Positions 1,857 to 26,698 of a stretch of DNA of 30,383 nucleotides are shown here, piece after piece. The notes below the pieces were generated by a model. That model saw only the letters and a program-made list of their open reading frames with translations, ran no database searches and was not told the DNA's origin. How positions within the stretch are numbered: the stretch's first letter is position 1; every line of letters begins with the position of its first letter. The DNA comes from Rhizodiscina lignyota. Taxonomy: Eukaryota. The translations under genes and the position numbers were made by a program. The DNA is taken from positions 496,001 through 526,383 of the forward strand of contig ML978138.1 in the NCBI GenBank assembly GCA_010015805.1, written 5' to 3'.

Positions 1857-2413
1857 TATTGAATCAGGGTCACAGTATTTTGCAAGCTGTTGTGGAGTCG
1901 TGATTTCTATGTGCATGCGGCAAATAATCACGACTTACAAATCTTAGTCTTGCTCTGACTTCGCTTTCACTGCCACCGTGACCGGCTCGCTCGGAGTGGG
2001 CAATGTCGACATACATTCGATCTTCACTGATGGCAAATCGGTCGACGCTTTCATCCCTGTCCAAGCCTGTAGCTCTCCTCATAGTCCGCCAAAGAAAATG
2101 TGGTTGGATCAATCTGTATTAGCAAAGATCGCCCAGCATAGCCAGACCAATACCATACCGCCCTCAAGGCAGTCCGGCTCTGCTTTAAACTTGATGTACT
2201 CCAGCAGTCTGGCCAGATGAGTTTAATGGCAGGTACAGCAGGTGAGCACTCTGCTGATCGTCATCTTTGGTACTCCGAGCTCCGCTGGAATGCCGTACGT
2301 CAACGCTTGAATGACGAATCCAACTCCGCATCGACATCCATGCTTTATTTAGTATTTAGACAGACCTTCATACGCCTCAAATATGTCCATGAGTATTGAG
2401 AAGCGATTGAACG

Positions 2414-4102: not shown

Positions 4103-4543
4103 GCAAACAGAGATATCGTTCGAGTGCGCAGACAATGGTCAAGACAATATAACAGAGCACCAGTGACAGGCACTGCTGGCTCGACGACTTGGCGCACATT
4201 CCACTACTATTGTCAGGGGCTCAGATGCTCACGCCAGGCTGAGCTACTACTATGAGCACTTGCGTTAAATGGTGAACTTGGAGACGAGCTGTGAAAAGGA
4301 AAAATCGGAATTTTGTCGGCCCAAGCCCATACCATAGCAGATGGGCCCGGCGAAAGCTTTGACAACCTCCAGTTTCGTTTCATCACGGTCTTGTAACTGG
4401 TTAATCACCTTAAGACCTAAGCTATTCGGTTACACAAGCAGAAGATCGTTACGACTACAAAACTTTTCGTTAGACCGAGTTCATGATTTCAGACCCTTTT
4501 CCATATTACGCCTCCTGTGGCGGTCATTCCTGACAAGACCGCT

Positions 4544-6949: not shown

Positions 6950-7915
6950 CGTGTTTGACGTTGCTTTAAGAAAGGCTGGAGGAAATTTGAAGAGTGGCAG
7001 GAGTTAAAATTCTCGTGGCATGTTTTCACGTGCGACGTATGCTCTGGCGAATGAGGGGGTTGCTCGTGAAAGAAAATGTGATACGGAGGTTGAAAATCAC
7101 TCACCAAAACCAAGTCGCTTTCACCGTGTGTTTGCACCTCCTGCACTTCCACGGCGCATCCTGAAGTGCCCCAGAACATGCAGACGTGGAGCAAGCACTC
7201 CAATGCTCCGAATGCTCGTATGGGGTGTGCAGTGGCATGCACAAGACAAGATCTCGATGCTGCGAGATGGTGATGTTGCAGGGGCTGCAGGAGAAGGCGC
7301 ACGGCCGCCCAACCTCGTCCCCCACCGGCGGTGACTAGTAGGTGGTGACTACGCAAGCAGGACGTGCGCGCACAATCCTTCGGCCAGGAACGCGAGCGAA
7401 GCGCAGCAAAAGGCAGGGAACTTTGTTTCCGACTGCCCTCGCCCTCCACATATGCTCTAGCGCCCGACGCCTTCGATATTCGCTATGCCCAGTCGAGCAG
7501 CAGCACAGTGCACATCTATCGGATGCTCAGGTCATGCTCTACTGATTCGTGCCAACCTTGACCCTGTGCCAATCGACCTTCTCTCAGGGACAACCTCTCT
7601 TTGCTTCCATTGTTCTCCTCCTCTCGTTGTTGCGCTCCTTCTGTATAGTTTTGTATTCTTATCCACACCTTCATTCATTCTCTATACGCCGCGCATTCAT
7701 TACGACGCTTCTAGTGCCTTCGTACCACGACATTTCGTCACTTCAGCTGCAGCGTTCCGAGCGTCCAACGGCGGAGGTTATCGTCCTCTCCGCACCTCGA
7801 CACTTGTCGAGGACTTCCGACGTTCGATCAGTTATAAACATGTCGCGTCCAATTCTTCTTCGGTAGCACCAGTCACAACATCAAGGCCCTGTCAATTGGC
7901 ACCGTCGCAGCCACC

Positions 7916-9131
7916 ATGTCAGGCCAAATCCCAAAGTACCCTCCAGCGGCACTGTCAGACGAGCCAATGCCAAAGCGAATTTCAACGCCTGCCGGAGACC
8001 GCCTGTCGACAATCATAGAGGGCGGCGGTGCCTCGCATCTGTCACGTTCAACAAGATCATCTTCGAGGCTATCCATGAATAGGGTGAGCGCTGGCTTGGG
8101 CTTACCACCTCGAGAAAGCCACGAGCAGTCTTACACGACCATCTGGTCCGATGCGAATCTCCCAGTGCGCGACTCGGAGAAGGTCGACCGGAGCTGGAGG
8201 GACGATAATTTCTTTCTACGAAGAGGTGGATGGAAACGCTTAATACTTTTAATTCTAATATTCGTAATCATCATCGTTGGCGTAGTATTGGGCCTTGTCT
8301 TTGGATTGAAGAGTCGCAATTCCAAGTAAGTCTGCTTATCTAAATTGATGTTCCACATGCTCATCCGACAGCAGACAAAGTGCGCCTCCGAGCACAAAGA
8401 CCAATGCAGACACAACACCGACATCTTCATTTTCGTCATCTTCTTCCGGGTCTTCGAGCGATCCCGATCCAACTCCAACGCACACGGCCGCAGCCGCTCC
8501 CAGCGCTTCCAGCACACCATCCAAGTTCCCAATCGGAACGTACTCCATGGTCACCTATCTCTCAACCGTACAAACGAACTGCACCTCCAACCCCGATACC
8601 TGGACCTGTTTCCCCTACAGCACCTACGGCGAAAACCAAGCGAAATCCATGACGACCTTCAACTGGAACATCACCGCAGGCTCCTCTCCCGACACCTACA
8701 AGATCTCCTCCACCGACGACCCCTTCTCCGTATCCTTCTCCAACGTCGACCTCAACATTGTCGACAAAGGCCAAGCCAGCGAGCACTACATGTTCCAGCT
8801 CACTTACGACAAGCAAGTCCAACCCAGCGCAAGCCTGACAGACGACGATGCCACCACGACCTGCTTCTACAACGCCACGACGTTCCAGAGTTACTTGTAC
8901 ACCCAAATGGCGAAGGATTACCCATCGTCTGGCATTAAAGATGCCAACGCATCATACACAGAATGGCCCTTTGCCATGAGGGTCGAGGAAGTCGCCGGGG
9001 GCGGAGACAACGTGCCGAATTGCTACAAGACGAACAACAACGTGGTCGGAGATCAGATCGACTCCGACTCGCTTAAACCGCAAGCAGGCGGAGAATTGTG
9101 CGACTGCCTGTACTTGAACTGGTTCCCATAA
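7916..9131 (+). CDS. Conserved fungal single-pass (type II) membrane protein with a Ser/Thr linker and Cys-rich extracellular domain, about 389 aa; exons 7916-8325, 8372-9131
   Basis: Start context CCACCATG. The TM segment RRGGWKRLILLILIFVIIIVGVVLGLVFGL is followed by an intron at 8326-8371 (GTAAGT...CAG), an S/T/P-rich stalk, and FPIGTYSMVTYL...CTSNPDTWTCFPY...WPFAMRVE...CDCLYLN. Function unknown. Confidence 0.8.
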
Positions 9132-9807
9132 CGGCCGTTCATTCGATTTCTCGTTATCACATGTGCTACTACACGCCGAAGCACATCTCGCGCGATCTTT
9201 CATTTACATCGCTCTTTGCCATATACCCTTTAGCTCATTGATGTACGATAGCGACACCTCAGGCGGATTACCTTATGGGCGTTCCAACATTTTGCTTTTC
9301 GGACGGGGAAAATCACTGCCACGGCAGAATGGCAACAACAAGGAGTTTTACGAAGTCCACAGTAGATACAAGAGTATAAATAAATGATAATATAATTCTG
9401 AGACAGAACATCTTCAGTTGTCGAAGTGTCGGTGTGATGGTGACAGGGGGAGCTAGCCTGGATGAGGCTCAAAAGTCCTGGTCGCGAGTGCATATTGCCC
9501 TGGCCCCTGTCGAAGGGTCCCTGCCCACCTGCGTCATATAGCCGTGCGCGCACTACCTATCTCCTCGAGCTCCACCCCGTTAGCTTTCTTTTGGCGTGCC
9601 TGCAGAGCTCTCAACGTCCTCGTTTCAATATAGCCTTCAACAATTTTAAGAACACTGACTTGCTTCAATTGCTCTCACGCACCTGGGATTTCATTTCAAA
9701 AATCTCCAATTGCGAGCAGTTGCTGCGTAGATACAGCTACCTGAATATTCGCCACCGAAGACTTCAGCAAACCCACCACCTCAACATCTCCCTCCCAGCT
9801 CGTCAAG

Positions 9808-10463
9808 ATGCTCCGCTGGTATCAACTGCAATTGCGCACCCGCCCTCTACTCACCCAGAGCATCACCACAGCTGTAAATGCCCCCTAACACCCAATCCCA
9901 ACTCGCCTTATCTACCCAACCTCCACCCAAACTGACAACCCTGCTCACGCCCACGCTCACAGTTCCTCTTCGCAACCGGCGACGTCCTCGCACAGCAATT
10001 CGTCGAAGGCCGCAGCCCCGAAACACACCACTTCCCACGGACAGCGCGCATGGCGGCGTACGGCGGGCTGGTGTTCGGGCCCGCGGCGACGCTGTGGTAC
10101 TCGAAGTGCCTGACGCGCATCAACCTGTCGTCGACGCCGCTGACGATCGCGGCGCGCGTCACGGCCGACCAGACGGTGTTCGCGACGACCAACCTGTTCG
10201 TGTTCCTGTCGAGCATGAGCGTGCTCGAGGGCACGGACCCGAAGGAGAAGCTGCGGCGCAACTACGTCGAGGCGCTGAAGAAGAACTGGATGGTGTGGCC
10301 GGCGGTGCAGGTGGGCAACTTTGCGTTCGTGCCGCTGGAGCATCGCGTGCTGGTGGTGAACGTGGTCAGCATTGGGTGGAACTGCTATCTGAGCTACATT
10401 AATAGCCAGGGCGGGTACGAGGCGGCGGACGATGATGAGAAGGTGCCAGATGTGGTGAAATAG
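9808..10463 (+). CDS. SYM1: Mpv17/PMP22-family mitochondrial inner-membrane protein SYM1, 188 aa; exons 9808-9873, 9963-10463
   Basis: Reads MLRWYQ...RPLLTQSITTA|FLFATGDVLAQQ...RTARMAAYGG...ADQTVFA...NWMVWPAVQVGNFAFVPLEHRVLVVNVVSIGWNCYLS. Intron 9874-9962 has a CTGAC branch site. Confidence 0.93.
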
Positions 10464-11892
10464 CTCGGGTGAGATGGAGATATTAAACACAATATTACTG
10501 GTGGTTCGGTCACATCAGAGAGGAAGCGAGATCGCATCGGTGGATGATGGCGATGGTCAGGGAGAAGACGTTTCCCGTCTTGAACGATTGATGGATGCTG
10601 TTTGTGGACAGCATCGTCAGGGCAGTGCCTCCGATGCGGAGGAAGCGCGAGCTGGACGAATGATGGGAAAGTCTCTGGAGACAACTCTGTACATATGCGA
10701 CTGTACCTCATGAGTAGTGGTACATGCGCCGAATCGTGACGTACATCGATTTCATGACAGCTATTAACGACGAGATCTATCTATACTGTGTCATCATCAT
10801 CTTCTTCTGATTCCAATTAATCCAACAGAAGCGAGCAAACTCACACAAGTCTTCGCAGACATTCGCGTATCCAGTTGCAGAGGAACAATACGAATAATAC
10901 GAGGCAGCAGTCATCAAAGCATCACACAGGCGCGCAAATCATCAAATGTTTTAAGAAAGAGTCTTCGATTCCCACTGCATGAATCATGAGGCGGCAACTG
11001 CTCGCCTCGCTAACTTCCACTTTTGTTGTGCACCGGCAAAGCCCCGTCGTCCATCCATGCCATTGAAGACTCAGAAAGAGGAGAACACCTTGCTGCATGG
11101 GGGGCGTCATTGCCGCTTGTAGAAGAAAACCAGAGAGAGAGAAAAGGGGAAAGAAGCCTTCATGCCGCCGCTGATTCGATTCAATCGCTAATCCACGCAA
11201 CCCAGATGCCAAGCACAAAAAAGTCATTTGAATTGGGGGGAAGAGAAGTGAAGGCCTCCTGCAGAAAGAGCATCCGTCGATTTTTGAAAAAGTGGCCCAA
11301 GGGCATTCCTGCATCGCTTGTGTGACCGCAAACCGCCTTTGGCTGGAGAAAGCCCGTCCAGCCATCAATCCGCAGTAGTTGTACAGACGAAAAGTTTGAA
11401 TCGCACTAAAGAAAGAGCAGGGGGGGCAGGCCGTCGCTGATTTTTCTCTATCCTCCCAGAAGACAACTCAGAAATAAGGAAAAGGGTGTGTCGATCGAAA
11501 AACCAGTGGTGCAGGTGTACGTGTGTCGGAATGAAAGTCGTGGTGCTGTGCTGAAAGGGAGAGTCGATGAGGGGGGAAATGGTGAAAGGGAATCGTTGGT
11601 GTGCCAAAACTTTTTAACCATGCCAAGAGTCGCCGGTTCATTAGGGTATGCAGATGGAGCACAATTGGCCTGAGGAAGGTCCACCGGGAGGGCATGACAT
11701 GCATCGGAGCTTGTTCGGTAGTTGACGCACCCTGATGCAGTGCTAGCAAGATCCGTCGCAACGACCTCGCTCGAAGGACTCGCCACGGCGTCCCACATCC
11801 TGAATGATCTCCTTCCGCCTCGTTACGCAGTAATCACAAGTGCAGGCGCATGTTCGCAAGTCGCAAATGCAGAAGCAAGGCGGCTCACGCGG

Positions 11893-12050
11893 ATCCAGGC
11901 GCTCCTTCAATCACTGGAATATATCAAAATCTCATGCGAAAAATTTGGGGCTTTGGATCTTACCACTTCCTGGCCTCCATACAGGAGCTCCTGCAATTAC
12001 TGCAATTCGTCAAATTCTCAAGCATGAAAGTTTTGGAGTTCGATCTTACC
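11893..12050. repeat. Diverged tandem duplication (72-nt units, 86-nt period) of the terminal intron + stop-codon acceptor of the RRM gene
   Basis: 11893-11964 and 11979-12050 align without gaps at 53/72 identities by my hand count. On the minus strand each unit has a GTAAGATC donor, a 50-nt intron, CAG-stop, and a second AG 9 nt further on. Confidence 0.85.
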
Positions 12051-13445
12051 TTCATCTGCTGATAGGGACCTCCATAGCCATGAGCCTGCGGAGGCATGCC
12101 GCCACCCATTTGCATGTTCGGGTAGACTGGTGGAGGTGGAGCAGGACGGTAAGGAGTTCCTGCTGGACCGGAGTTGTTCTGGCTACGACCCCAGGAGAGC
12201 CTCACACGCGAATTGCCGATCGGATATCCTTGCATCTGGTTGATGGCCATTTCGGCAGCGTGGCGTTGCACAAACTGCACGAAGCCGCAGCCCTTGCCGG
12301 GAGGGATCTTGACGTAGGTAATCTCACCGAAGCCCTGGAAGAAGGAACGCAGCTCATCCTCGGTGACATAGCCGGAGAGACCGCCGACGAAGACGGTGGT
12401 GTTATTGGGGTCGGTGAACTGGTTCATGGGCTGTGGAGCGCCGTAGTACGCTCCCATTGGAGGAGCACCCATGCCGTACATGCCGACTGGACCGCCTTGC
12501 ATGCCAGCACCAGCACCACCACCCATGTTGCCGAATCCTGGGCCACCGCTCTTGTTCTTGGGAGTCGCAGTGGAGATGCGCATCGGACGATTTCCGGCGT
12601 ACACGCCTTGCATCTCCTGCAGAGCGCGCTGCTGCTCGTCCTGGCTCGAGAAGCGGACAAAGCCATAGCCGCGTGACATGCCAGTGATCGGGTCGGACAT
12701 GATCTTGGCAGACTTGCAGGATGGATACTTCGGTTGGAATAGTGAAACAAGGACATATTCGTTCACTTCTGGGCCGAGATCACCCACGAAGATGGAGTAC
12801 TCGGGACCACGGTCGTCACGACTGCGTCAGTATTAGTACAAGCACGTCCGCAGTTTATAGGAATGCGATTGTAAACAAACCTTCTATCCGCGAGACCTCC
12901 ACCAGACGCCCAGTTAAGCTTGAAGGGGCGAGTCGAGTTGGGGATCATCTGGCCGTTGAGCCCAAGCGCCTTTTGCGCAGCTTCGGCAGATTGAAAGTCG
13001 ACGAAGCAGTAGCCAGCGTTACTTCTAACACTGCAGTGTTAGGGTAAAACGTTCAAAATACAGGATATAGAGTTTTCGATTACTTACCCGGAAAACTTGT
13101 CGCGAATCATCTTCACATTCACTTGCTCGCCCATGCCGTACCAAACGCTGCGGATGAAGTTCTCATCAATCCAGGGCTCAAGTTCACCCATCCTGTAGGG
13201 GCATGTCAGCGCGTGTTTACTGCAAACACCTTCAGAGAGAGCTGAGCTGTCGCTTACCAAAGAGTGGTCTTGGAATCACCCTGCGGCTCTGAGCCTGGTC
13301 CGCCTTGCATCATTGCGCCAGGAGGCATGCCACCTGCCATGCTCTCAATCGGCTGGCCCATCTGGCCAGGTTGCTGTTGCGCGCCGCCTGCGCCAGGAGT
13401 GTTTGCCTCCTCTCCGCCGGGTTGTCCTTGGAAAGCGTAATCCAT
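11997..13445 (-). CDS. NAM8: Triple-RRM mRNA-binding post-transcriptional regulator (NAM8/NGR1/Csx1 family), about 403 aa; exons 13445-13258, 13192-13088, 13024-12881, 12821-12050, 11999-11997 (stop only)
   Basis: RRM1: TLWMGELEPWIDENFI...NAGYCFVDF...FKLNWA. RRM2: EYSIFVGDLGPEV...SRGYGFVRF...RPMRISTA. RRM3: DPNNTTVFVGGL...GKGCGFVQF...SRVRLSWGR. Four GT-AG introns keep the frame. The exact orthology within the family is uncertain. Confidence 0.9.
13025..13042. repeat. Perfect 18-bp palindrome CTAACACTGCAGTGTTAG covering the branch point and 3' splice site of intron 2 of the RRM gene
   Basis: The sequence equals its own reverse complement. On the transcript strand it begins with the CTAAC branch site and ends with the TAG acceptor. 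Confidence 0.9.
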
Positions 13446-13554
13446 TGCTTCTAAACGTATTCGTTATGCGCAAGCTCGTATTGGTTTCGAAATGCTGGCT
13501 GAAGTGGTTGAGAAGGAAGAAGCTGCACACGATTGTGGAAAAGTGTGTAGTTGG

Positions 13555-14324
13555 CTGGCGTGGTAAGAAAGAGAGAGCGTTAGCGCGCAACGTCATTGAA
13601 TAGAGTTCACGTGGGCGCGCGCTGACTCACAAAAGCTTGAGTGGTATACCGAAGCACTGCTTGTAGAGAAGTGAAAAGTCCGCAGGTAGCCGAGTGTGTT
13701 GAGTGTCTACGAGAACGGTGCGCGCGCGCTCGAAGGGAAGCTGGAAGGACTGGAGTGAAGCAGCCGTAATAACCGTGTTAAGACCGAATTGTGTTGACGA
13801 CTAACTCCAGTACGCGCATGAAATCCTCGTGAACGAAGGGCCGTTACTGAGAAGAAGCTCGATGCAGCAGCAGGAACCAGAGATTGCTCGCGTGGAAAAT
13901 CTGCGAGGTCAGCGCGTTAGTGTTGCGGCACTCCACTTGACGATGAGTAAGATGCAACGCGACAGCACAACGAAGCGATGCGGAGCGGGCGCGCGGTGTT
14001 TGGGAAGTGAAGGATCGCAAGAGCGAAGTGATCAGTGAAGTGCGGGAAAAGGCGGGCGAGCGTGTCGAGCGACCGAGTAATTCGCCGAGGGTGAGAATTT
14101 TGCGTTTGCGCAGGCGTCGGGCGGCAGTGAGGTCACTGTCGAGGCTGGCGCGCCTTCAGGGCGAGCGCGGCGCGAGCAGCGGGGAGGAGTGCGACGCCTG
14201 TCGACAGCAATTGGGGAACGGGCGCGGGGGGCGTGTGGTGATGTGCTGGAGTCGCGAGAGTCGATGTGAAGCCAGCGCGGAAGCAGAAGGGTCGCGGATG
14301 CGCGCGCGCAAGCAGAGCACTCAC
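13555..14324 (-). other. Probable 5'-UTR introns of the RRM gene (13630-13555 and 14324-13901)
   Basis: Minus strand shows GTGAGT...GCTAAC-pyrimidine tract-CAG (76 nt), and a GTGAGT at 14324 with CTAAC/CTGAC...GCAG ending at 13901. A CT-rich TSS-like tract lies near 14450-14500. The donor pairing for the long intron is a guess. Confidence 0.5.
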
Positions 14325-15653
14325 CGGGATGAGAGGGAAGTATCGAGGCCTTCAACAATGCAAAGCGTAACTCGACTTGCAAGCGCCGTGAAGAGCAGAG
14401 AAAGCACGCAAGACCCACGACGCAAAGAGACGGAGAGCACTGCTGCGATTAAGAGTGATGAGGTGTAGAGGGGTGAGGGTGGAGGAAGAGAGCGAGGCGG
14501 GGCGAGGGAGCACTACTGTCACGGTCGCTCAGCACCCATCGCATGCCCACCCACACCCATACCCACCGCTCGGCTCGGCCTTGGCAAGCGGCGGATAAGT
14601 CCAGCGTCACGACCACAGCAACAGCTCCCACGCCGACGCGACCTGCTGGATAGAGCCTGAAGAACAGTGCCCGGGCGTGCTGCTGCTGGCGGGCAGTGGG
14701 CGGCAGCAGCGCATGCAGCGCCAGCCTCCACCCTTCGCACCACCTGCCCATGCGCTGCAGCAAAAGAAGAGTCGTCGCCGCGCTCCTTGCTTGCTCGGCT
14801 GTCCCATTGCTCCTTTCGTCCCGTCCTCTGTGCGCCCACCACTCGGTTTGAGCGCGGCGCCTGCGTTTGCTGATCCCCATGAGCTGCATTTCCTGCCCGC
14901 CGCCGCGTCATGGAGCAGCTCGCGAGCCACTCCGCGCACGCTCATTCGCCCTCGCCCGCCCGCCAGCGCCCTCGCTATTCTTAGTGCCGATTCCTGCAGG
15001 TCCCAATTGCTTGCAAATCAGCTGCTTCTGGCTCGCAGGTACAGGCACATGAAGAAGAAGACATCATCGAGCGTGCTGCAGCAATGCATGCCGCATGCGG
15101 AGACGCTCAACATCAGCATCCGACGAGGACGCTCAACCCAGCAGCTCAAAGAATGCACATGTGACTGACATTAATTTCATCGAGAGAAAGAATGCGATAG
15201 CGCGAGACGTTGGAGACGAATTGGGATATCCATAGACTCAATTGGTGTGTCATAGCGGACCGGGACAGGACGCTTGCCGCAAACGGATAAACGGACTCGC
15301 AAATCAAGCACCAATCAGCCGAGGTAGTATAGCAGAACATTGCAAAGTCAGATGGCATACAGTGCATCAATCGATTGCAAGACGAGGAAGTGTCGAGGTT
15401 AAAATGCAAAGAGACGCTGGCAACGAGGTGGTGTGAGAACAGACGATCACGGAAACTCGGAATCAGGCAGCGTCGCCAGAAATGGACGGATCGCAGCAAG
15501 CGCACAAATCAAGAAGCATCGCGTCGGATGAATGCATGTTTTCACATCTGGTATAATAATTGACATCAACTCATCCTTCCGCGTGACAATCATCTCCATT
15601 AGAACTCCCAATGGCATCGTATCCACAAGACACACACCTCACGTGCTCCCCGT

Positions 15654-16295
15654 CTACGCCTTCTCGGGAACGCCAGCCGCCTGCTTCGCCTCGCCGAAGC
15701 TGTCCCTGCCGCTGGCAAACACCTTGTCGAAGTCGTACTCGAACCATCTGATGTCGGGCGACAGACCGGCAAACTTCCACACGCCGTCGACCTTCTTGTA
15801 CCAGTGCGTGTTGGTGGAGTGCGCGTGGCCCTTGACCAACACCTTCGTCTGCGTCGTGTCCTCGTACTTCTGGTGGGGCACGCGCAGCTGGTGGTAGCCG
15901 ATCACCTCGTCGTCCGACACCTTCTCCCACTTGGTGCCGCCGATGAAGTGCTGTGTGCGGAGGGTTGGGTCGCCGAGCACGTTCGGGTCGGACGCCATCT
16001 TGACGAACTCGTCGGCAGGCATCGCCTCCCACATCTTGTCGAGGAAGGAGCGGTAGTCGACCTGTACATCGGCACGAGTTAGAGAGCTGCACTTCGCGGA
16101 GAAGTGGTGGGAAGACTGACCCTCAGGGTGGGAGCAATGCACTTGCTCAGCCTCTCCCAGTCCTTGCTGTCGTAGCTGTCTGCCCACTCGAAGCAGGCGG
16201 CTTGGAGGCCGATCAGATCTGTTCAATATCAGAGAGTGCGGGGCAACATCGATCGCAGACAACATACCCTCGTGCGTGATGATATCCTTCGACAT
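15654..16295 (-). CDS. SCD1: Scytalone dehydratase (DHN-melanin pathway), 177 aa; exons 16295-16268, 16218-16121, 16061-15654
   Basis: Reads [44 protein letters not shown]...[14 protein letters not shown]...[10 protein letters not shown]...[24 protein letters not shown]. Introns at 16267-16219 and 16120-16062. Confidence 0.96.
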
Positions 16296-17375
16296 TGTGA
16301 ATACGACTGAACAACTTTTGATGTGATTGAAGAAAGCGACTTTTGCTTTTGACGCTGAAATTGAAATCGAAAAGTAGAAAAGAAAGAAGAGGCGGTCACC
16401 TAGACCATTTAAATACAGACACCGCCGCCGGTGTGCAATCTGCGCAAGCTGCGCTTCGGCGGCTCTCCATCGTGCCCGGACTGTGGGGGAATCCCGAAGG
16501 CCATGCAGAACATCGAGCAACTCCGACCCCTCGGACTCGCCCCTGACTATTCTTGGGAGGCCCGACGCAGGGGAGTTTATTGTCCTGCGCGGATGTCGAC
16601 AGGAGCTGCGTGGAAGGAATTGCTATTTTGCGAGTGCGGTCACCGCACCCGTTTGGAGGCGCAGGGCTTTTGGTGTTGCCCGTATTCTCATGCAGGGATG
16701 GCGGGCCGTTGAGTGGGGAAGAGGAGCCCTAACCCTATGATTTTCAGGAACAACATCTATCGAGATGTGAAGGTGCGGATGTTTATCTACGATAAGGGAC
16801 GATCTTTGAATGTGTCTCATGCTGATCCGTCGATCGTAAGTGCTCGACATTGAGATTCCACCATGAAGAAAAGCCACTGAATCCGTATCCGGAGTGCCAA
16901 TATTTGTTTTCCCCAGAATCGATGCAGTCACCCGCATTCCTGCAAGTGCCCTGCTGAGACGAATGAATGTTTGGCAAAGATTCTGCAATTACCTTACACC
17001 GCTCCTTCGTTCTGAAGACGATGATCTTTCCAGCCTTACACAAGAGAATCGTACTTCTCTCACATGATATGATCAGGAATAATATAAAGAAAATATAATA
17101 GCAACAAGATAATAAGACTGGATCAGGCATTAGAAAGTTGCCTCCAAAATCAGCAACTTCCTATTATTCTTTCACTGTCATGACACCAAGTCATAAGCAA
17201 AAAGCAATCCTCAAGTGGTATCTCAAATCAGCCTTAACATCCGTCTATTTCTAGACTGAAGCACCAAATTCGCAGCTTTGGCGTGTACAGTCTGTGTTAA
17301 CTGACGGCCCTATGTATCCTCGCGGTGAGCTATATTGCAGCCACGACTCAACTTTTCGGCCACCCACTTGCACAT

Positions 17376-19624
17376 CTAAGAATCAACAGCCTTGCCTCCC
17401 TTCTCGTCGACCTTCTCAGGCGACGTGTTCGATCCCGTCTCCTCAATAACCTGTCCCCTCATCATATGTGGCTTCTCCTTGCCCGTGAGATCCCTATAGA
17501 TCCTAACAGCAGTGCGCTTCATCGTGTGACGCCCTTCGTACAGCGGATACAATCCCACGCAGAAGGAGCTGCAGAACAGCCAGAGGATGCCCACGGAGAC
17601 CCAGCCAGTGAAGAAGGGCTTGGAGAAGACGTAGCCGGAGCCATACATCGGCATCGGCCAAAGCACTAGCAGGCAGAGTGTCATGATCACCGTCATAACC
17701 CGCGCAATACGGCTCGCCCGCTTCAGCTTCGTCTGCTCCTGTTCCGACTCCGCGACGCTGTTCCGACGCTCGCCAGGGACGTTCTCAAGGTCAACGTGTG
17801 CGGCCTGGGCGATGTCGTGGTCGTCGCCCTTGCGGATTGCCTTCATCGATACCCAGTCATAGTTGGCGGGCTTGAGGGCGAAGGTGAGGATTGGGATGAA
17901 GATGCAAGGGGAAAGGAGGGCGACGACGTTGCCGGCAAGCATGGGGTTGTTGGCACCAGTGCTGGCGACGGATAGGTTGCCACTCTCCTTCTTCGCTGTC
18001 ACGAGCCACGCGATGAGCGAGCAGACGAAGCCTAGTGGTGGTGAGAAGGTGGCTGCTGCCCAATTCTGCTTGGACCAGAGTAGGGTGAGTGCAGCGGGAA
18101 GCACGGCGGAAGAGATTATGACTCCCATGAGAAGGTAGAGGTAACCCATGGAGATGCTGGACAAAGTAAGCGCAAGCTCAGTTCACTGAAGACGCGAGAC
18201 AACCCACCCAATGTAATGTAGACCAGTACTGAAGCCAGCAAGCAAAATCGCATACGTGACGACGCATGCGTGAGCCATGTAAATGAGTCTCCTTCCGCTT
18301 GCCTCGGGATTGAAGTACGTTTGATAGATATCATAGGTGAAGATGGAAGATACGGCAATCAGTTCTGCAGACATTGCGGAAGTGACAGCCATGAAGATAA
18401 GGAGCAGCGTTGCAGCAGCTCCACCCTTTCCAAGCAGTGCAACAGCAGCATCCGGAAGGACGAGACCGGCAGAGACATCAGCTGGAGCCATGCGGTTCGG
18501 GTAGGTTGGGAAGACTGGATTGCCCTCGAGAGCAAGCGCAGAGAGACCCATGGTCGTTGCGCACAGCCATGGAATCGCAAACCAGCTGAGACCGCCCATG
18601 ATATATCCGGGGAGGGCATGGATTGGACTGGCGGCAATAGCCTTATTGTAGTAACCGTTATCGCAGAAAACCGTCCCAAAGTTACCCACGATGTTGATAA
18701 CAAAGAAGACTGCTCCCTCGCGAGATCTCATTGTGAGGTAGCTGCCATCCGCATTTCCGGCAACCGGGTGTTCTTTAGCTGCTTTAACAAGCAAGTCATA
18801 CACTTTGCCTGGGCTTCCAAGTACATCGCTTGTGGAATATGCAGTGAAAGCAAACGTGAAGATGATGACCAGGATGACAACAGTGTGCGCGTAGTCCGTG
18901 AGGAAAGTTGCTTTGATGCCGCCGAACATTGTGTATAGTACGACACCGACCGGGAGCAAGAAACATGCTGCGGCAGTCGGTACTCCTGTCAGAGATGTGA
19001 CAACCTGTGACTATTAGAGGAATCCCCAAAGGCTAATTTGGTTATAACATACAGCAGATCCACCGGTAAGCAGCATAGCCGTCCTGCTTCTATTAGTAAA
19101 GCTCAGCAGCTTCGACTTTAGCTTGGACTTACACGAGGACATTCGTCATCAGGCCGAATGTAATGTAGACAAAGTGAGTAATGGTACCATATCGCGCGCG
19201 AATGACTTCGAGGAAGGTGTGGGCATTTGGAGCGCGGCGCTTGAGTTCAATGGCGAGCGTAGCAAACAGGATGATTTGTACCGTCGCTCCGGACGCGTAC
19301 CAGAAAGGTCCAGAGACTCCATAATTATAGGCTACGCCTGAGCTCTGGAGGAGAGTAGCTGCCCAAGTCCAAGACGACACGACAGCCGAGGAGACCAGTC
19401 CAGATTTGACCGTCCTTCCAGCAGTACTGAACATTTCTGATGTCTGAACTTCATAGTTGTAGCGCTTCAGGATGTACGTCGTGAGGATCATAGCAAGGCT
19501 ATGTTTGAGACGTTAGAACCACAATTCTCATCAATGCTGGATAATTTACTTACGCGAAGGCGAAGCCCAGGCCAATGATGACACCGTACCCGGCGCCCTG
19601 GGAAAGGGGTGGTGTTCCGCTCAT
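17376..19624 (-). CDS. DUR3: Urea active transporter (SSS family, DUR3/UreA), about 681 aa; exons 19624-19554, 19498-19133, 19083-19053, 19004-18208, 18156-17376
   Basis: Reads [81 protein letters not shown] and [21 protein letters not shown]. Four GT-AG introns of 48-55 nt. Confidence 0.96.
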
Positions 19625-19711
19625 GCTGTCAAAGAGTCTTTTTCTATTACAAGAGCTAGAACTCTACGAGAATTGCGACCGAAGAAAGGAGAATTCATGA
19701 CTGACATGAGA

Positions 19712-20651
19712 GATAAATATGCTACCTACCGAGCTCTGCCAGCTCCCCAAACGCAGGGTTTCTCTCCGATCGAGGCCGATCTACTCATCGAATTTTGCAA
19801 ACAGCCCATGAAGCTAAACCCAGCATGCTTTCTCCGTGGGGTAGTGACATGCAGTTCGTGTAGCATGAAGCTAGCTGCTATGCGCTGCAGAACGTTGCAA
19901 GATGCATGCATGGTGCCGCCTTGGGGTCCGATAAGGCAGAAGAAGAAGAACATTTGCGGAGGGTCTGCGATAAGATGAGGAAGGAGATTTAGTCAACGAC
20001 AACGGGCCAATGAAAATTCTTTCATCTGCGGGAGGCTCAATGAGCCGAGCACGGACGGGGAAGTCAAATTGGACGTCTGAACAGATCTGCATGTCCAAAG
20101 CTCGTCATACGACAAGGAAGAAACAGGGGAGCTGAGAAGATTTTCGCCTGCAACCTATCTTGAGATGTCTTGAACTGGCAAGCTTACTATGATGACCATG
20201 CCTGCGCCGTACTCTGAATGACGATGGTCCAGTGTGACGGAAGAGATGCCGATGTCCTGCTGCGCGCTTGGACTGCTGTGGTTGGGGAGGCTGAAGCTTC
20301 GGGCGACGGGCGTGGCCGAGACAAAGTGGGGATAAGGAAAATGCGACCTTTCGCTAAGATGAATTGAGGCGTCGTTCGATGATTGGCCGATGGGCGTCGT
20401 TATCTAGACGACGTATCATCACGCGAGCAGAAAATTGTCCAACACAACGAGACGAAAATTCTCCTCAGCAAAAGAAACGTTGCTGCGGCGTTCCTCAAGG
20501 CGTCTTGGCCTGGCTGGACGTCTCTGCAGGGCGACCACCACCAGATCGTTTCTAAAGATTGGCGCCGAAGGAGCGTCAGTAATTGGCCTTTTCGTATCTG
20601 CCAAGCTTCTCAGTGTTTGGAGAGTGTGTATCTCGACCACCAGATCGATAA
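19712..20651. promoter_or_regulatory. Cluster of GATAA(G) sites upstream of DUR3, consistent with AreA/NIT2 nitrogen regulation
   Basis: GATAA at 19712, GATAAG at 19930, 19969 and 20331, TTATC at 20400, GATAA at 20647. Urea transporters are established GATA-factor targets. Confidence 0.55.
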
Positions 20652-22826
20652 CGCTTGATATCTGCTCGTATCCCCAAGATTAAGGTAAGAGCCTGGAAGC
20701 ATGAAGAACAAGCTAACGACCATCGCGGGAGCTCACTCACATCTGAAGCGCCGTTGAAGTACATTTCTGACATTAAGGACGATGATGTTTCTGCTTGGCC
20801 TTTTTAGCATGAGTGGAAGCCAGATATCGCATAGAGATCCTTACTCAGCATTACAAATGCTGTGTTGCGGAGCGTCGACGGACGACGGTGGATAATATCA
20901 CCACTACCGCTTTCGGTAAGCCAGACAACCGTGAAAGCATCGCGTTCAATAATATCGAAATGGACTGGAATACCTTCACCAATGAATCAAGATTGATTTA
21001 ATTTATGATAATGGAAACTGTACGGTATGTAGGTCTATTAATTTGTTGAACCCCTTATCCCGAGGCCCCCTGCTTAAAGCTATAATATGAATCATACTCA
21101 CAGATTCCTAGGCCCCTACAATTTGCAGACTGGGCGCAGTTGGAGCGTTAATTTAAATTATTATCACGGCAGTGCCACGCCACTATCTTCCCTGAGCAAG
21201 TTCCGCACTACTCCTGTAATCATCGCCTTAACCGAACGGAGTCCCAATAGAAAAACCTGATGTCTGCTAAAGTTTTTCTCCTCCCAAGTCACTCTCTGAT
21301 AATGTGCCGACAGTACGGGGCTGGAATGAGAGTTCTTTTCGCTCTTGCGTTCAACTCCAGGTTAAGGCAATTCCTTTTTAATCCCATCTTTCCCTTTGTT
21401 TTAGTCTTCTTCTTTTTTGTTTTCAAGCTCTGCTGCGTCACTTTATCCGCTTCAATGAGAGATGATCACTGTGCACCTTTCGCATCATGTCAAAATGATT
21501 CATGGCGAGTGAAGGGGCTTTGCTATTGAGATATCGACCTACGACGAAACACTCCCCGGCTCTTTACGAGCTCTGAGTGCAACTTTTACCTATGGTTGCA
21601 AAATTCTCTTGTAGCTTGCCTTCCAACATCTGCATTCAGCAGCCAACTTTTTTCCTTCAGTATTCGGAGTCGATCTGTTGAAAGAGAGCGCCCAATTCCA
21701 TTCTCCTTGCTTCAACGGTTATGACACGTCAAGCTTCCGATCTTTCTGTCATTAAAGTTCTCTTCTTTTATAAGCACGAATCCCGCCTAACCAACCTTCT
21801 CCACGCAGCGCCTCACCATTCCTCGTGGAGCCTTGGCCCAGAGCCTTGCACCAGTGTATCGAGTACACTGCGAGGCTGCGATTCCAAACGTGTACATTCC
21901 TCTTTGCACTGCTAGAACAATAGTCTGGGATCCGCGTCTTCCGAGCCCGCAGCGGCATTGGTTACATCCTCTTACAGCCTTCATCTTCTAAGCGCAGACA
22001 GCCCCGCGCCTTCGCCACGACCACTGAATAGAAAGCAATTAGCGCCTTCCACGAAAGAGTCACAGACCTTAGGCTCGACCTTGCAGGACCCAAAGTCTTT
22101 ACAGCCAAATCGGCGCATACCACCGAGAAAGAGCTTAACTTTGTGGCATAAACCGCCCCTCCCTCGCTTGCCATTATGTTATACCTTACTGTTGGGAACA
22201 GTCGTGTGGTGGAAGAAGAGGACTTGACTGGCGTGTTGAGTTCTGGCTATGGCTCACAGACAGGAAGAAGAAACGTGATCAGATTTCCATTTGCTATCTA
22301 TCTAGGAGAAGCAAACAGGGAAAAGATTGTGTGACGACACTGTCAGAAGAGGCTGTGGATTCGCTAATATGACAATAGCTAAAAGACGTAAAAACAGGCC
22401 CCATTGGAACGAGTACGCACCTTATCCATTCAGCTACGAGCAATTCCATTCCCGCGATCGACCACCTCAACAGCGGTCAGCTGTTTGTTCGCAGTCTACA
22501 AGTTATATAACGCGTGCGTTTCCCCCGTCTTCTCCATATCAACTCTTCCCTAGACCTTTACAAGCAGACAGGTTGGCATATCAATTCTGTTGGAGTTATT
22601 TACAGGTTGTTCCTTTCGTGAAGGGAGATACGGAAGCACAACACGCAATACTGGTAGATCATCTCAATGAAAATCTTGCATTGATTCCTCAGACTTCCAA
22701 GCAAGTGTCAAAGTGCAACCTCATTCTGTGAGCAACAAGGAATCTGTCACCATCATAAATAGCTCCTTACCACTGTCATAGCCCCTACCGATCCAAAACT
22801 CATCAGAACACTAACACAGAATAGAG

Positions 22827-24140
22827 TTACGTGTTTGCTCTTTGCGATATTACCGGCATGTTACCGAAAAACACAACCAGGACGGCGCAATATGCAGCTG
22901 CTGCTCCGAAGATCTCGTGACGCCTTGCACGAGTGAAGAATGACAGTAGAGTGGAGAAGGCCAACGTAAAAAGTAGAAGTGTTCCGACCGCGATGGTCGC
23001 GCCGTTCGTATCTAGACCGTTGTCATTTGTGACGCGATAGAGAATGTATACAGGCGCAACAAGCAAACCGAGTATGCTCATCGTAATGATTAACAAAACA
23101 AGGTTTTCCACCCGGTTACGGCTGAAATATAATTCGTTGGCCTTGGTACGACCTTCTGTCTTCCGTTTAGTCTCCCGCGAGCGGAAGACGTACCTAACAG
23201 GGTGACAATTGAGAATCCTCAATAAATTCTCAACGCCATCATCCAGCCAGGCACGTTCTCTGCCAGTACGCAGTGTGATCATGTCCTCTTTCCATTCAAT
23301 CCACGGCTCATCCCGTTGGCAAAGCGGTCGCGTATTCCAGAAGAAATTCCGAAAGCTTCGATACGAGGACGCCGATGGACGTGGAAGAGAGGTAAGATCT
23401 TTCGCAAATAGAAGAAGCTTCGCTAGGTTTCAGGCTTAGCTTTGACGAACTTTTCTGGCTCTTACGTCGAAGAACTTACCGTATTCCTTAAACCTTGCTT
23501 CAAGCTTCGCGAAAAGCGCTTGCCTTTCGCTAGGAGTTTCACTACCCAGCTCCGCTCTATTCAGGCAACCAGGACGTTCGCTATCATCTTCATTATCCAT
23601 GTCTCCCAAGATGTTCTCGAGCTCCTGCAATTCGTTCTGTTTCTCCAAGAGCAATCTAGCGTGGATGTACCCGAACCTGCGGTATATCATGAAGTTCTCA
23701 TCGCTGTCAAGGAAAGCCGCAAGCATAGGATAGCCTTCGGGGCATTTTTGAACTGTTACCGGTCAATTGAAGGCAACCGTCTCAGTGCGGTAAGAAGACT
23801 CAGGGTTGCGCAGACTTACGGTTTCGCACTTGAACTGGATGCCTTGCGCCCCAGCTCAGCTTCGCACGAAGCTTGGAGAATGTTATCCATTGCCCGAGCC
23901 TCGTCTTACACGGAACTTTGGTTGGTTAGCACTTCTCAGGCGGCTCGAGGAGCAAATGCTTGAAGTTCTACCTTGAGCCCCCATCGGCCGGCCCTGTCCC
24001 GTCAGACCTGATGATATGCTGCGCACAGACGCATCTTCCACCTGTAACGTCTGTCCGAGTTTCTCCTCTTCTACAGCTCCGCTTATCGTTTCTTTCTGTG
24101 CTTCAAGATCGAATTCAGGCCGTGTTATCACCAAATTCAT
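22827..24140 (-). CDS. DUF6594-like fungal membrane protein with three C-terminal TM helices, 377 aa; exons 24140-23972, 23915-23820, 23752-23480, 23422-22827
   Basis: Three phase-1 GT-AG introns (56, 67, 57 nt) give one frame. It has the signature CPEGYPMLAAFLDSDENFMIYRRFGYIHARLLLEKQNELQELE...D, then EDMITLR.GRE.AWLD, three hydrophobic helices, and TRARRHEIFGAAAAYCAVLVVF. Family call is from motif memory. Confidence 0.85.
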
Positions 24141-24310
24141 ATTCGTAGGTTGAGAGAATGATCGAAATCTCAAACTCAGGCTCCCCTCAGGCTTTTTCAG
24201 GCTCCCATGACATTCTGCTGCCTCAATTTAAATAAAAACATAGCAAGGCTAAATCCCAAGATCATGGCAACGAAAACTGTCTGCTGCAGACTGCATGCAG
24301 CCGCTCTAGG

Positions 24311-24731
24311 CTAGCTCAACATCTTCTCGGGAACCCAATCTTCGACCTCCACGCCATCAGAATCCTGCACCCTGTAATAGAATCTGCCTTCTTTGTCCTT
24401 CGCACATTGGATGATCTTAACCGGCATCACCGGACCTCTGGGTTTATTTCGGTATTGCGCCATTTGTCCTTCGTGAAAGCCTTTCTTATACTGTGGATTG
24501 GTTGCCTCGTCAGCGCTCAAGGATCATTTCGGTGACACAGCACTCACCTGGGCAGGCTCATCCTCCCTCACACTCGTTCGCCCTGGTGACTCCGCCCTCT
24601 ATTACAACACTTTAACTCTCTGACATGGACCAACTGCGACTGCAGAGACTTACTGGAATGATCAATTTACAATCTCCGTGTAGGTCTCGAGGCTCATTAA
24701 AGATCCCCTGGACACCGATAACGTCAGCCAT
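24311..24731 (-). CDS. Small hypothetical protein, 102 aa, with a C-terminal SH3/Tudor-like beta-rich pattern; exons 24731-24654, 24598-24548, 24490-24311
   Basis: Start context GACATGG. Two phase-0 introns (GTAAGT...TAG, 55 nt; GTGAGT...CTGAC...CAG, 57 nt) give MADVIGVQGIFNEPRDLHGDCKLIIP|RAESPGRTSVREDEPAQ|YKKGFHEGQMAQYRNKPRGPVMPVKIIQCAKDKEGRFYYRVQDSDGVEVEDWVPEKMLS*. Confidence 0.7.
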
Positions 24732-25175
24732 GTCGAGAGGTATGGCTTAGTCCACTTGATTCGAAACCCAGGTATGTAGACTCTAGTGCCGACTGTGACG
24801 GTGGGCGATGTGATCCATCAAGATTATTATATACGGCTTCTTGAATCCGGTGTGAGGGAAGGCCGCATCCGATCACGTAGTACTGCGTGGCGCATTCTTC
24901 TACTGTCCACTGATTATCACCCGATCACGCTGGGAATCTCTAGGAAGGTGCTTCCAAGGGCGGCCTCAACGAGAAGTACACGTAGACGGATCCGGTTTGC
25001 AATCTGCCTCGGGCGTCGAGTCCGCCTTGCTAAGGCAACCGGTGAAGTGTTCGTGCAGATGTGGCTTTGCGTTCTTTTGAGGCTGAAAGACTACACTATA
25101 GGTTTATATAGAGTAACTTGTGGCGCATCACAATGGGGACATAGCATTCGTTCTCAAGTTGGCCTCTTAGATCAA
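24732..25175. promoter_or_regulatory. Putative bidirectional promoter (444 bp) between the small gene and the caspase-like gene
   Basis: TATATAA on the minus strand at 24833-24827, about 100 bp before ATG 24731. TATATA on the plus strand at 25105-25110, about 70 bp before ATG 25176. Confidence 0.5.
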
Positions 25176-26698
25176 ATGGACCCAGCAGAACCTACTCTTT
25201 CCCCTCCTTCCGAGCCGGACTCGTACTCTCCACTCAAAATGAAGTCTTCACTCGGGAATATCAGGGTCGCCAAAGACGCCGATCTCCGCAGTAAGCAGGC
25301 AGTATTCGACCAACACTTTGTCTTTCAGCCGGAACCCGTCAAACATGATCGGACTGCGGTACTTCTCCTTTCTTGGCAAGGAAGTAATATGGATGGTGTC
25401 TCCAAAGAGGTGAGATAATTACCGTGTTTCCTTTCGTTGGCATTCCAGCACTTTTGAGTTACATATTGTTGGTATCGACGTTAACTGCAAAAAGTTACAA
25501 GATGTTAGAAGCGTTTTCGAAAAAGTGTATGGGTTTGAAGTCAAAGAGAAAGAGTTGGTTGGAGATATGCCAGCATCAGCTCCACAGCCACAACTTCAGC
25601 TCCAGCATATCCTCACCAACTTCATGTTCCATCATCACTCGACTCGTCCGCTGTACATCATCTACTACGCTGGACATGGGTTTGGTGGAGATAAAGCTGG
25701 GAATTTGCATCTTCCACGGTAATGCACGCTGTTGGGGACGTGGACTCCCGCTAACTTAGTTCTCCAGCGAAGTGAAATTGAAAAAGTCAACAAAACAGGA
25801 CATCATTGTGTGGAATGAGGCAGAGAAACAGCTACATAATCAGCGAGCAGACATTCTTCTCATTTTCGACTGCTGCGATGCTGGAGCTCTTCGCCAACGT
25901 GGGGATTATACGTTCGAATTTCTTGGTGCCTGTGAAGCAAACAAGAAGACGCCATTTCCGGGACACGAGTCGTTCACAACTGCACTTGTTTGGGCTCTAC
26001 GCAATCTTGCTGAGGAAGGAACAGGCTTCGCTACCCCGAAACTCAAATCTGAGATCAAGAAGCACGGTAAGTTTCAAGGCGACCCTGTCCTCTTCTATCG
26101 GGGAGAAAACGCGAACCCAAGTGGCCCACATGTTTGGATTGAACGGATGCCCCAAGGCAGTGGATCGAATAACCAGACACCAACGCGACCCTTCCCTGAT
26201 CTAATCGTTGATTCTCAGGAATCATGGGATTGGATGGAATTCCGACTGTGGTTTGACAGGGCGCAAAAGCACGAGGACGTCAAGAACCTTGCCCAGGGGT
26301 ACAATCAACTTGTTACCGAGCATGGGCAAGACCTGGGTCTTCGCTTGGTGTCTCTCGTTAAGTCGTCACTGCCTCCAGGTCAAGTTTCCAATGACTTGAA
26401 AATTTTCGTCGACAATTGGAGGCAGTACAAGCGTCGCGCGTCATCTGCTAGTCAAATTCCTCAGCTTGAGATTATCCCTCCTGAATCGACGCTGGGGTCT
26501 TCCTTCCCCCCGTCACCTTCAGAACCTATTGTGGAGGTGCTGACTCAAGCTGAGCCACGATCTCCTGTTACGCTCATCCACTCTCCCTCAAAGACACCGC
26601 CACCGGGCGTAGACCTGATGGGGCCGGAAGACATGGAAGTCAAGGAATTATATGAGGGCGAAGCTCATCCCGAAGTTCCGCGACACATCGGCAAATGA
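25176..26698 (+). CDS. Caspase-like (clan CD, C14-related) cysteine protease with an intact His-Cys dyad, about 462 aa; exons 25176-25409, 25495-25718, 25768-26698
   Basis: Reads TAVLLLSW...E|LQDVRSVFEKVYGFEV, then LYIIYYAGHG (His), ADILLIFDCCDAG (Cys) and FEFLGAC...TPFPGHESFTTALVWAL. Introns 25410-25494 and 25719-25767 (GCTAAC branch) keep the frame. The tail is Pro/Ser-rich. The start codon is not certain. Confidence 0.8.

Follow-up and report, generated by a model that had tools for sequence, protein, structure and literature searches.

A compact three-gene locus and its recurrence

The window analysed here, a stretch of 30,383 nucleotides (nt) of the dothideomycete Rhizodiscina lignyota (GenBank assembly GCA_010015805.1, contig ML978138.1, positions 496,001-526,383; coordinates below count from its first letter), carries at 22827-26698 three closely packed genes, encoding a membrane protein of the family DUF6594, a small protein with a predicted Tudor/chromo-like barrel, and a caspase-like protease. 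We rebuilt these genes from stop-to-stop open reading frames (ORFs) and the raw sequence. A preliminary description, made from the letters of this DNA alone, had placed three spliced genes at these positions, and the rebuilt models reproduce them, including the four-exon model of 383 amino acids (aa) and the three-exon model of 102 aa; the 170-bp gap and the 444-bp divergent region that it reported both prove exact in the exon models and sequence. The locus comprises:

22827-24140, minus strand: DUF6594 gene (Pfam PF20237 match; 4-exon, 383-aa model), with exons 24140-23910, 23871-23820, 23752-23480 and 23422-22827 (stop codon 22827-22829)
22866-23105, minus strand: three predicted transmembrane helices (about residues 194-273 of the NCBI model P0016; AlphaFold2 helices 189-222, 226-250 and 255-274)
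23910-24140, minus strand: exon of the DUF6594 N-terminal extension (exon model), 77 aa, low complexity, ATG-led
24141-24310, minus strand: 170-nt spacer separating the stop of the small gene from the DUF6594 ATG (sequence and exon models)
24311-24731, minus strand: small gene, 102 aa (splice model; barrel domain conserved in 47 of 80 loci; AlphaFold2, Foldseek), with exons 24731-24654, 24598-24548 and 24490-24311, GTAAGT/GTGAGT donors, and introns of 55 and 57 nt
24732-25175, no strand: divergent intergenic region of 444 nt between the small gene and the protease, a putative promoter region (sequence and gene models)
25176-26698, plus strand: caspase-like Peptidase_C14 protease gene (Pfam; NCBI model P0001), with three exons, 25176-25409, 25495-25718 and 25768-26698, GTGAGA and GTAATG donors, and in-frame junctions
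25675-25677, plus strand: putative catalytic His codon, in YYAGHG (motif inspection)
25871-25876, plus strand: pair of Cys codons in FDCC that includes the putative catalytic Cys (motif inspection)

Relatives of the locus were sampled with the DUF6594 alignment alone, which matched 593 stretches among metagenome contigs of the Joint Genome Institute; 239 of these encode relatives of the query, and the best 80 were examined, each with up to 10 kilobases (kb) of DNA per flank. These 80 loci are therefore the nearest relatives of the window DUF6594 gene, and as metagenomic sequences they are not assignable to species. The protease was sought in them by tblastn with 13 protease-family proteins (E 1e-3 or better), and the small barrel with a hidden Markov model (HMM), built from the ORFs around tblastn matches and refined in three rounds of search through all six-frame ORFs of 30 aa or more. 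Because many loci are near-duplicates, they were clustered at 95% or higher nucleotide identity over the DUF6594 region, giving 57 clusters; those with at least 900 nt of upstream DNA were taken as informative for the barrel (n = 33), and those whose DNA extends 3.5 kb or more upstream and 2.5 kb or more downstream as informative for the protease (n = 15).

The barrel ORF was found in 47 of the 80 loci, in all 47 upstream of DUF6594 and on its strand, and 355-685 nt (median 557; 573 in the window) separate the end of the small ORF from the DUF6594 domain. The tight and constant spacing of these two same-strand genes suggests a shared, possibly bicistronic, transcript. A protease homologue was present in 31 of the 80 loci, in 18 of the 20 flanked on each side by 3 kb or more, and in 16 of the 18 flanked on each side by 5 kb or more. 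Counted by informative cluster, the barrel ORF occurs in 31 of 33 (L023 and L033 being the misses), and the protease in 13 of 15 (the misses, within the DNA covered, being L033 and L074/L075); a more sensitive HMM applied to the loci without a protease found no further one. The 24 protease-bearing clusters fall into three gene orders, with the protease upstream and divergent, as in the window, in 16; downstream on the same strand in five, where it lies 0.7-0.9 kb from DUF6594; and upstream on the same strand in three. On a DUF6594 tree of limited resolution this distribution requires about five changes of arrangement, and, given the well-supported branches, one arrangement must have arisen at least twice.

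When the ORFs of 70 aa or longer from 27 representative loci were all compared with one another, no family beyond the trio proved to be widely shared in the flanks, the next groups being ORFs antisense to DUF6594, fragments of the trio itself, a short-chain dehydrogenase/reductase in five related loci, and a WD40 protein in three. Adjacency that is kept through rearrangements, within flanks that are not conserved, points to selection on the cluster rather than to inherited synteny. The pairwise identities of DUF6594 and protease are also correlated (Mantel r 0.62, a value reached by none of 2000 permutations). In the protein database, protease homologues and the closest DUF6594 homologues are listed with longest contigs of equal length, both for the window contig (526383) and for five others, with lengths of 316344 (Viridothelium virens), 18636, 30076, 11408 and 19856; for the proteases of Bogoriella megaspora and Bathelium mastoideum, no DUF6594 partner on a contig of equal size was listed in this search, which covered proteins of 110-350 aa.

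Recurrent linkage, on which the preliminary description had staked its proposal, was thus observed: the three families occur together in metagenomic fungal loci, in three gene orders. That they constitute a functional three-gene module is well supported by this comparative evidence. The module is one of filamentous ascomycetes, and consists of an invariant tandem core of small gene and DUF6594, accompanied by a mobile but faithful caspase neighbour.

Properties of the three proteins

The protease model comprises 463 aa from the first methionine, and the NCBI model P0001 is the identical chain from the second (441 aa); the additional in-frame methionine lies 22 codons upstream of the annotated start (window 25176-25241). 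A TATA-like tatata is visible at about 25106-25111, some 65 nt upstream of the first protease ATG, where a promoter role is putative. Against the Pfam family Peptidase_C14 (PF00656), P0001 scores 24.3 bits, with a gathering score of 21.4, and P0009, P0010 and P0011 score 25-30 bits; P0002 and P0003, fragments that contain exon 3 only, gave no match to PF00656. A motif of the type YY[AST]GHG is present in 29, and one of the type D-C-C in at least 27, of the 31 protease-bearing sources (30 loci and the window). Columns D166, C167 and C168 are invariant in the alignment of 13 family members, which have in common the invariant blocks D-C-C, FEFLGAC and SFT..L.WAL, and in which the caspase domain is followed by a conserved region of about 100 aa and then by a disordered tail. 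In Pfam searches, P0001 and its relatives contain Peptidase_C14 only, with no repeat, NACHT/NB-ARC or NLR parts, and belong to neither the S8 nor the CHAT type. The protease is, by these matches and motifs, a stand-alone Peptidase_C14 protein with a predicted intact His/Cys dyad. The caspase-like His-Cys protease anticipated in the preliminary description is accordingly borne out by a Peptidase_C14 match above cut-off together with the YYAGHG and FDCC motifs. Within the clan, enzymes that prefer Arg or Lys are marked by an Asp two positions ahead of the catalytic Cys; by analogy with metacaspases and paracaspase, the Asp at this distance from the second protease Cys would suggest a preference for basic P1 residues.

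The sole NCBIfam match of the protease was NF047832, 'caspase, EACC1-associated type' (E 3e-8 to 7e-12), which spans roughly positions 17-204 of the 211 in the profile, with 33.4, 37.7 and 45.3 bits, below the family cut-off of 140. PADLOC returned only a weak 'caspase' match, for two of five proteins, and a search of PDB sequences with the protease profile produced one weak and irrelevant match. The ESM Atlas puts P0001 among several Ascomycota clusters of 50-130 members, with Peptidase_C14 in 33-60%, and its model of the protease, for which the mean predicted local distance difference test (pLDDT) is only 0.62, aligns with bacterial Peptidase_C14 clusters at TM-scores of 0.42-0.46.

The first two exons of the small gene are predicted from splice signals only; the last exon, which contributes about 60 C-terminal residues, encodes the barrel. 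The gene is not annotated in the window genome, and none of the proteins of 38-123 aa in the protein database shares three five-residue words with its product. A phmmer search of 1.84 billion representatives with the small ORF gave two matches, namely P0014, of 91 aa (E 1e-4), and P0015, a repeat protein of 973 aa that was taken as spurious. Within the 80 loci, the weak tblastn matches of the small ORF all lie just upstream of DUF6594 on the same strand, and eight ORFs around them have in common a domain of some 60 residues, each terminating 2-5 residues past a conserved Leu. Differences between moderately diverged barrel ORFs are in modest excess at third codon positions (for example 21/12/33, 16/16/35 and 18/18/34). 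Together, the conserved domain, position, stop and codon pattern of the related loci show that the small gene is real. In L023, an ORF at 44-409 on the plus strand, about 1.4 kb upstream of DUF6594, has the pattern Y-x-Y-Q-V-D-G...W and may be a divergent barrel; it has no Pfam match.

AlphaFold2, run on the alignment of the barrel family, predicts a barrel with a pLDDT of 86.7, in which four strands are called. The best PDB match in Foldseek is the Tudor domain of ERCC6L2 (6hq9; E 2e-3, TM-scores 0.64/0.74), followed by MRG15, LBR and 53BP1, and almost all of the top 50 are Tudor, chromo or PWWP domains (TM-scores by query 0.51-0.66). The beta-barrel-like character attributed to the small protein in the preliminary description is upheld by this prediction and these matches. 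For the 37 aligned members, no Pfam match surpasses E 0.01, the weak ones being to unrelated families, and the barrel profile yields only sub-threshold matches to PDB sequences, the best to YdhK (E 0.01), with the chromodomains of CBX1, CDYL2, CBX5 and MPP8 at E 0.03-0.7. Aromatic residues are conserved in the family as W/F-x-Y and G-x-W. The small protein is thus real, fast-evolving, Tudor/chromo-like by predicted fold, and outside the curated families. It shares its predicted fold with the Royal family (6hq9, MRG15 2f5k, LBR 2dig and 53BP1); unlike the chromatin proteins of that family, it stands alone at about 100 aa, its gene lies next to those of a membrane protein and a protease, and it has no Pfam membership.

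The three families differ in their rates of divergence. On average, pairs of barrel sequences are 33% identical, pairs of proteases 41% and pairs of DUF6594 proteins 52-54%, and the corresponding values between L010 and L012 are 38%, 55% and 86-87%; as measured by identity, then, the small barrel protein is the fastest-diverging of the three. At least 14 of the loci come from contigs with the prefix Ga0265797, that is, many distinct copies occur in one metagenome, and two DUF6594 paralogues of the subfamily are listed for Pyrenula ochraceoflavens.

The DUF6594 protein matches PF20237 in two exon pieces, at positions 1-88 (72.5 bits) and 88-238 (119.6 bits) of 238, with a cut-off of 30. The NCBI model P0016, flagged as 5'-partial, has 285 aa and runs from 'PEGYP...' to the stop. 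The first intron of our own model (window 23872-23909, GTAAGA...CCAAG) is in frame, at 38 nt unusually short, and doubtful, so that the exact 5' structure of the gene is uncertain. AlphaFold2 (pLDDT 81.2) predicts a helical hairpin at P0016 residues 15-98, a helical middle part, and three C-terminal transmembrane helices, in agreement with the helical core and three-helix C-terminus proposed in the preliminary description. The columns R255, H256, E257 and A261-F272, nearly invariant among 63 sequences, correspond to the last transmembrane helix, which is rich in small residues (Gly/Ala), and the basic loop that precedes it. Basic residues before the first helix, and between the second and third, suggest by the positive-inside rule that the N-terminal 190 residues face the cytosol. 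Being predicted as all-helical, with three C-terminal transmembrane helices, DUF6594 reads as a constitutive membrane protein. A comparison with NCBIfam gave no meaningful match (best E 0.1). VIA-align produced a best Z of 8.7, to designed helical hairpins, SMC coiled coils and ESCRT-III hairpins, which we rejected as generic for long helices.

The N-terminal extension of DUF6594, another element of the preliminary description, recurs in position: an ATG-led, Ser/Thr-rich ORF begins about 150-350 nt past the small-gene stop in most representative loci, matching its place in the window, and in L038, L006, L016, L004 and L027 the extension runs without an intron into the DUF6594 domain. The extension has no Pfam match, and tblastx of window 23761-25176 against the 80 loci gave nothing at E 0.01 or better, which indicates that it is not conserved in sequence. 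Inspection by eye puts the interval between the stop of the small gene and the DUF6594 ATG, 170 nt in the window, at about 150-350 nt in most related loci. An acidic motif, [DE]-hydrophobic-E-[KR], with a methionine in the same frame at most 40 residues before it, occurs in 17 of 36 representatives in the sense direction and in none of 36 in antisense; it stands a few residues after the extension methionine, often with a following G, in L002, L006, L010, L012, L020, L034, L035, L045, L067 and others, and the window counterpart FDLEA (about 24110-24096) departs from it. The idea that a cut after the Lys of an N-terminal D-x-E-K-G might expose a Gly for myristoylation was dropped, because the residues following the Gly look inconsistent across loci by eye.

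Six of the 20 NCBI-named DUF6594 models among the database matches listed are 'partial' (P0016, P0032, P0039, P0052, P0067 and P0070), suggesting that gene callers struggle with the 5' end. A protein with DUF6594 only is called 'Peptidase C14 caspase domain protein', a name perhaps transferred from a model in which the two neighbouring genes were merged, and members of the protease family are misnamed 'Phosphatidylinositol-4-phosphate 5-kinase' or 'Homeobox domain-containing protein'; the misnamed entries include P0051 (Rutstroemia sp.), P0009 (Bogoriella megaspora) and Atlas clusters.

Relation to known systems and candidate modes of action

Protease genes beside membrane-targeting cell-death effectors are an established theme in fungi (PMC8851545; PMC12881547). 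There, a gasdermin gene typically lies in a cluster with a protease gene of the S8 or CHAT type (PMC8851545; reviewed in PMC12881547): 80% of 1,884 fungal gasdermin homologues have a protease gene within 10 kb, and 19% of the homologues have one of the CHAT type (Clave et al., 2022; PMC8851545). CHAT proteases, which belong to the caspase clan, thus make up about a fifth of the proteases concerned. The trio shares with the gasdermin (HET-Q1/RCD-1)/HET-Q2-like clusters the placement of a protease beside a membrane protein, and differs from them in its parts. Whereas the partner in those clusters is a gasdermin, here it is DUF6594, predicted to be an all-helical protein held constitutively in the membrane by three helices; in contrast to HET-Q2-like proteases, the protease is a stand-alone Peptidase_C14 protein without TPR, WD40, ANK or NLR parts; and the trio has a third, Tudor-like component. 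No gasdermin was listed in the fold searches with DUF6594, and its Pfam identity decides against gasdermin membership. The gasdermin analogy drawn in the preliminary description therefore survives as a common theme of protease and membrane protein clustering, but not as homology of the components, given that DUF6594 is not a gasdermin by Pfam or by its all-helical prediction, and the protease is neither S8 nor CHAT.

At the sequence level, the closest relative of the protease is found in the bacterial EACC1-caspase system, albeit below the NF047832 cut-off. This is a two-gene, membrane-associated conflict system ('System 4'), in which a protease of the caspase superfamily has as its partner a small membrane protein with a strongly conserved transmembrane helix rich in small residues, an arrangement comparable to that of the trio (Kaur, Burroughs, Iyer and Aravind, 2020; PMC7159879). 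Unlike EACC1, DUF6594 has three transmembrane helices and a predicted cytosolic domain of about 190 aa, and lacks NCBIfam similarity. The bacterial system has no Tudor-like partner, and the fungal caspase is without the variable effector domains that are fused to bacterial EACC1-associated caspases.

We tentatively favour, at somewhat less than even probability, a membrane-associated proteolytic switch of the conflict or cell-death type, in which the protease cuts a DUF6594 effector. The three proteins would act as a single switch, with DUF6594 as a membrane effector that stays inactive until the soluble protease cuts its cytosolic part. Candidate sites are the disordered N-terminal extension and a conserved, low-confidence loop (P0016 132-138) just before TLRxGRE.AWLD; a cut would free the conserved transmembrane part, and a basic cleavage site would fit an Arg/Lys preference of the protease, if it has one. 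The Tudor-like protein might serve as a specificity or regulatory subunit, be it adaptor, inhibitor or trigger sensor. Activation by cleavage, toxicity and a role in cell death or defence are features that we infer; the fast-evolving small subunit and the likeness of the protease to bacterial conflict-system caspases provide circumstantial support. The recurrent linkage, the retention of the catalytic motifs and the fungal precedent of protease genes beside membrane-targeting effectors also speak for the proposed switch. Several observations weigh against the proposed switch. The protease has no sensor domain, DUF6594 is a predicted constitutive three-helix membrane protein, unlike gasdermins, which are soluble until cut, and a Foldseek search with the DUF6594 model returned nothing specific (best E 0.42). 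The two of 15 informative clusters without a protease imply that the tandem pair can exist alone, and rapid evolution of the small protein may reflect weak constraint. The linkage, moreover, is shown for one subfamily, the 80 loci being the closest relatives of the window DUF6594, and the number of independent lineages among them is uncertain, as metagenomic loci carry no species assignment.

The logic of the switch might also run in reverse, with DUF6594 a harmless membrane sensor or anchor that recruits and turns on the caspase, whose true substrates lie elsewhere or whose substrate is the Tudor-like protein. This is the main rival, though we hold it to be rather unlikely. The protease resembles the EACC1-associated caspase type, and the EACC1 transmembrane helix, conserved with a patch of small residues, is proposed to act as a sensor at the membrane and to activate the caspase (PMC7159879); the last helix of DUF6594 is likewise nearly invariant and Gly/Ala-rich, in a protein that is predicted to reside constitutively in the membrane. 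Set against these parallels are the lack of sequence relation between DUF6594 and any NCBIfam model, the contrast between one helix in EACC1 and three in DUF6594, a protease match far under the family cut-off (33-45 bits versus 140), and the failure to identify a substrate candidate. Alternatively, the module may perform housekeeping, the protease attending to maturation, turnover or signalling of a membrane complex of DUF6594 and the Tudor-like protein, with no part in death or defence; this we judge unlikely. It would suit the position of the window copy among ordinary genes (those for the symporter, acyl-CoA dehydrogenase, scytalone dehydratase and RRM protein) and a protease free of sensor repeats and NLR parts, and metacaspase-type enzymes do have non-death roles. 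The very unequal rates, with a hypervariable small subunit, the many copies in one metagenome, and the two Pyrenula ochraceoflavens paralogues, which better fit an expanding and diversifying family, argue against housekeeping, although none of them is decisive.

Two further alternatives concern the reality of the trio itself. The small ORF could belong to the DUF6594 gene, as an upstream ORF or leader in its transcript or as a 5' exon that has gone unrecognised, which would leave a two-gene module; that the small gene is unannotated, that only 170 nt lie between its stop and the DUF6594 ATG, and that six of 20 DUF6594 models are partial, with a 5' region that is hard to model, would all agree with this. 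Such an origin is nevertheless very unlikely, in view of a domain of about 60 aa conserved in 47 loci and closed by a stop within a few residues of its end, the confidently predicted barrel, the enrichment of differences at third codon positions, the separate ATG and short motif of the DUF6594 extension in most loci, and the match to an independent protein of 91 aa. Chance adjacency, or merely inherited synteny without a functional link, has in its favour that DUF6594 is a large fungal family, for which some chance neighbours are to be expected on general grounds; contradicted as it is by the linkage counts, the three gene orders, the want of another conserved neighbour and the co-divergence, we consider it scarcely credible. 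The switch that we favour can be extended to a caspase-based membrane trio for death or immunity, spread through filamentous ascomycetes, with DUF6594 as a novel type of membrane executioner, the hypervariable Tudor-like protein as a recognition or specificity subunit (for allorecognition, or pathogen or mycovirus sensing), a bicistronic Tudor-like/DUF6594 transcript, and a caspase ancestry shared with bacterial EACC1-associated caspases that would connect the membrane-caspase conflict systems of bacteria and fungi; all of these parts holding jointly is improbable.

Neither 'DUF6594' nor 'PF20237' is mentioned in the open full-text library that was searched, and no description of the trio was found among the titles and opening lines of abstracts in the open literature. 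The clustering of genes for proteases and membrane proteins is already known, and two components of the trio belong to no described system. DUF6594, a fungal family of no described function, gains a genomic context here in the form of a dedicated caspase-like protease and a Tudor-like partner, the gene for which has seemingly been overlooked by gene callers. If the trio is indeed a protease-gated membrane system, then it would add a further, unrelated type of effector to the gasdermins and HeLo/MLKL-like domains of fungal regulated cell death, and provide a second link between the caspase-based conflict systems of bacteria and those of fungi.

Surroundings of the module

The module is flanked by genes for a sodium:solute symporter and an acyl-CoA dehydrogenase; the former is consistent with a DUR3-like protein, and both neighbours had been named in the preliminary description. 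The latter had also noted about 3 kb of gene-free DNA on the DUR3 side, and the gap between symporter and module (19517-22731, about 3 kb) indeed holds short ORFs only, three of which were checked and have no Pfam match. The remaining genes of the window (1-18200) are ordinary, and include:

140-1856, plus strand: GH31 glycosidase
2411-4102, plus strand: MFS transporter
4544-6316, minus strand: Clr2-like protein
9936-10463, plus strand: Mpv17/PMP22 protein
11960-12826, minus strand: RRM protein
15654-16622, minus strand: scytalone dehydratase

The gap at 19517-22731 is, in addition, slightly reduced in GC content (0.46-0.47).

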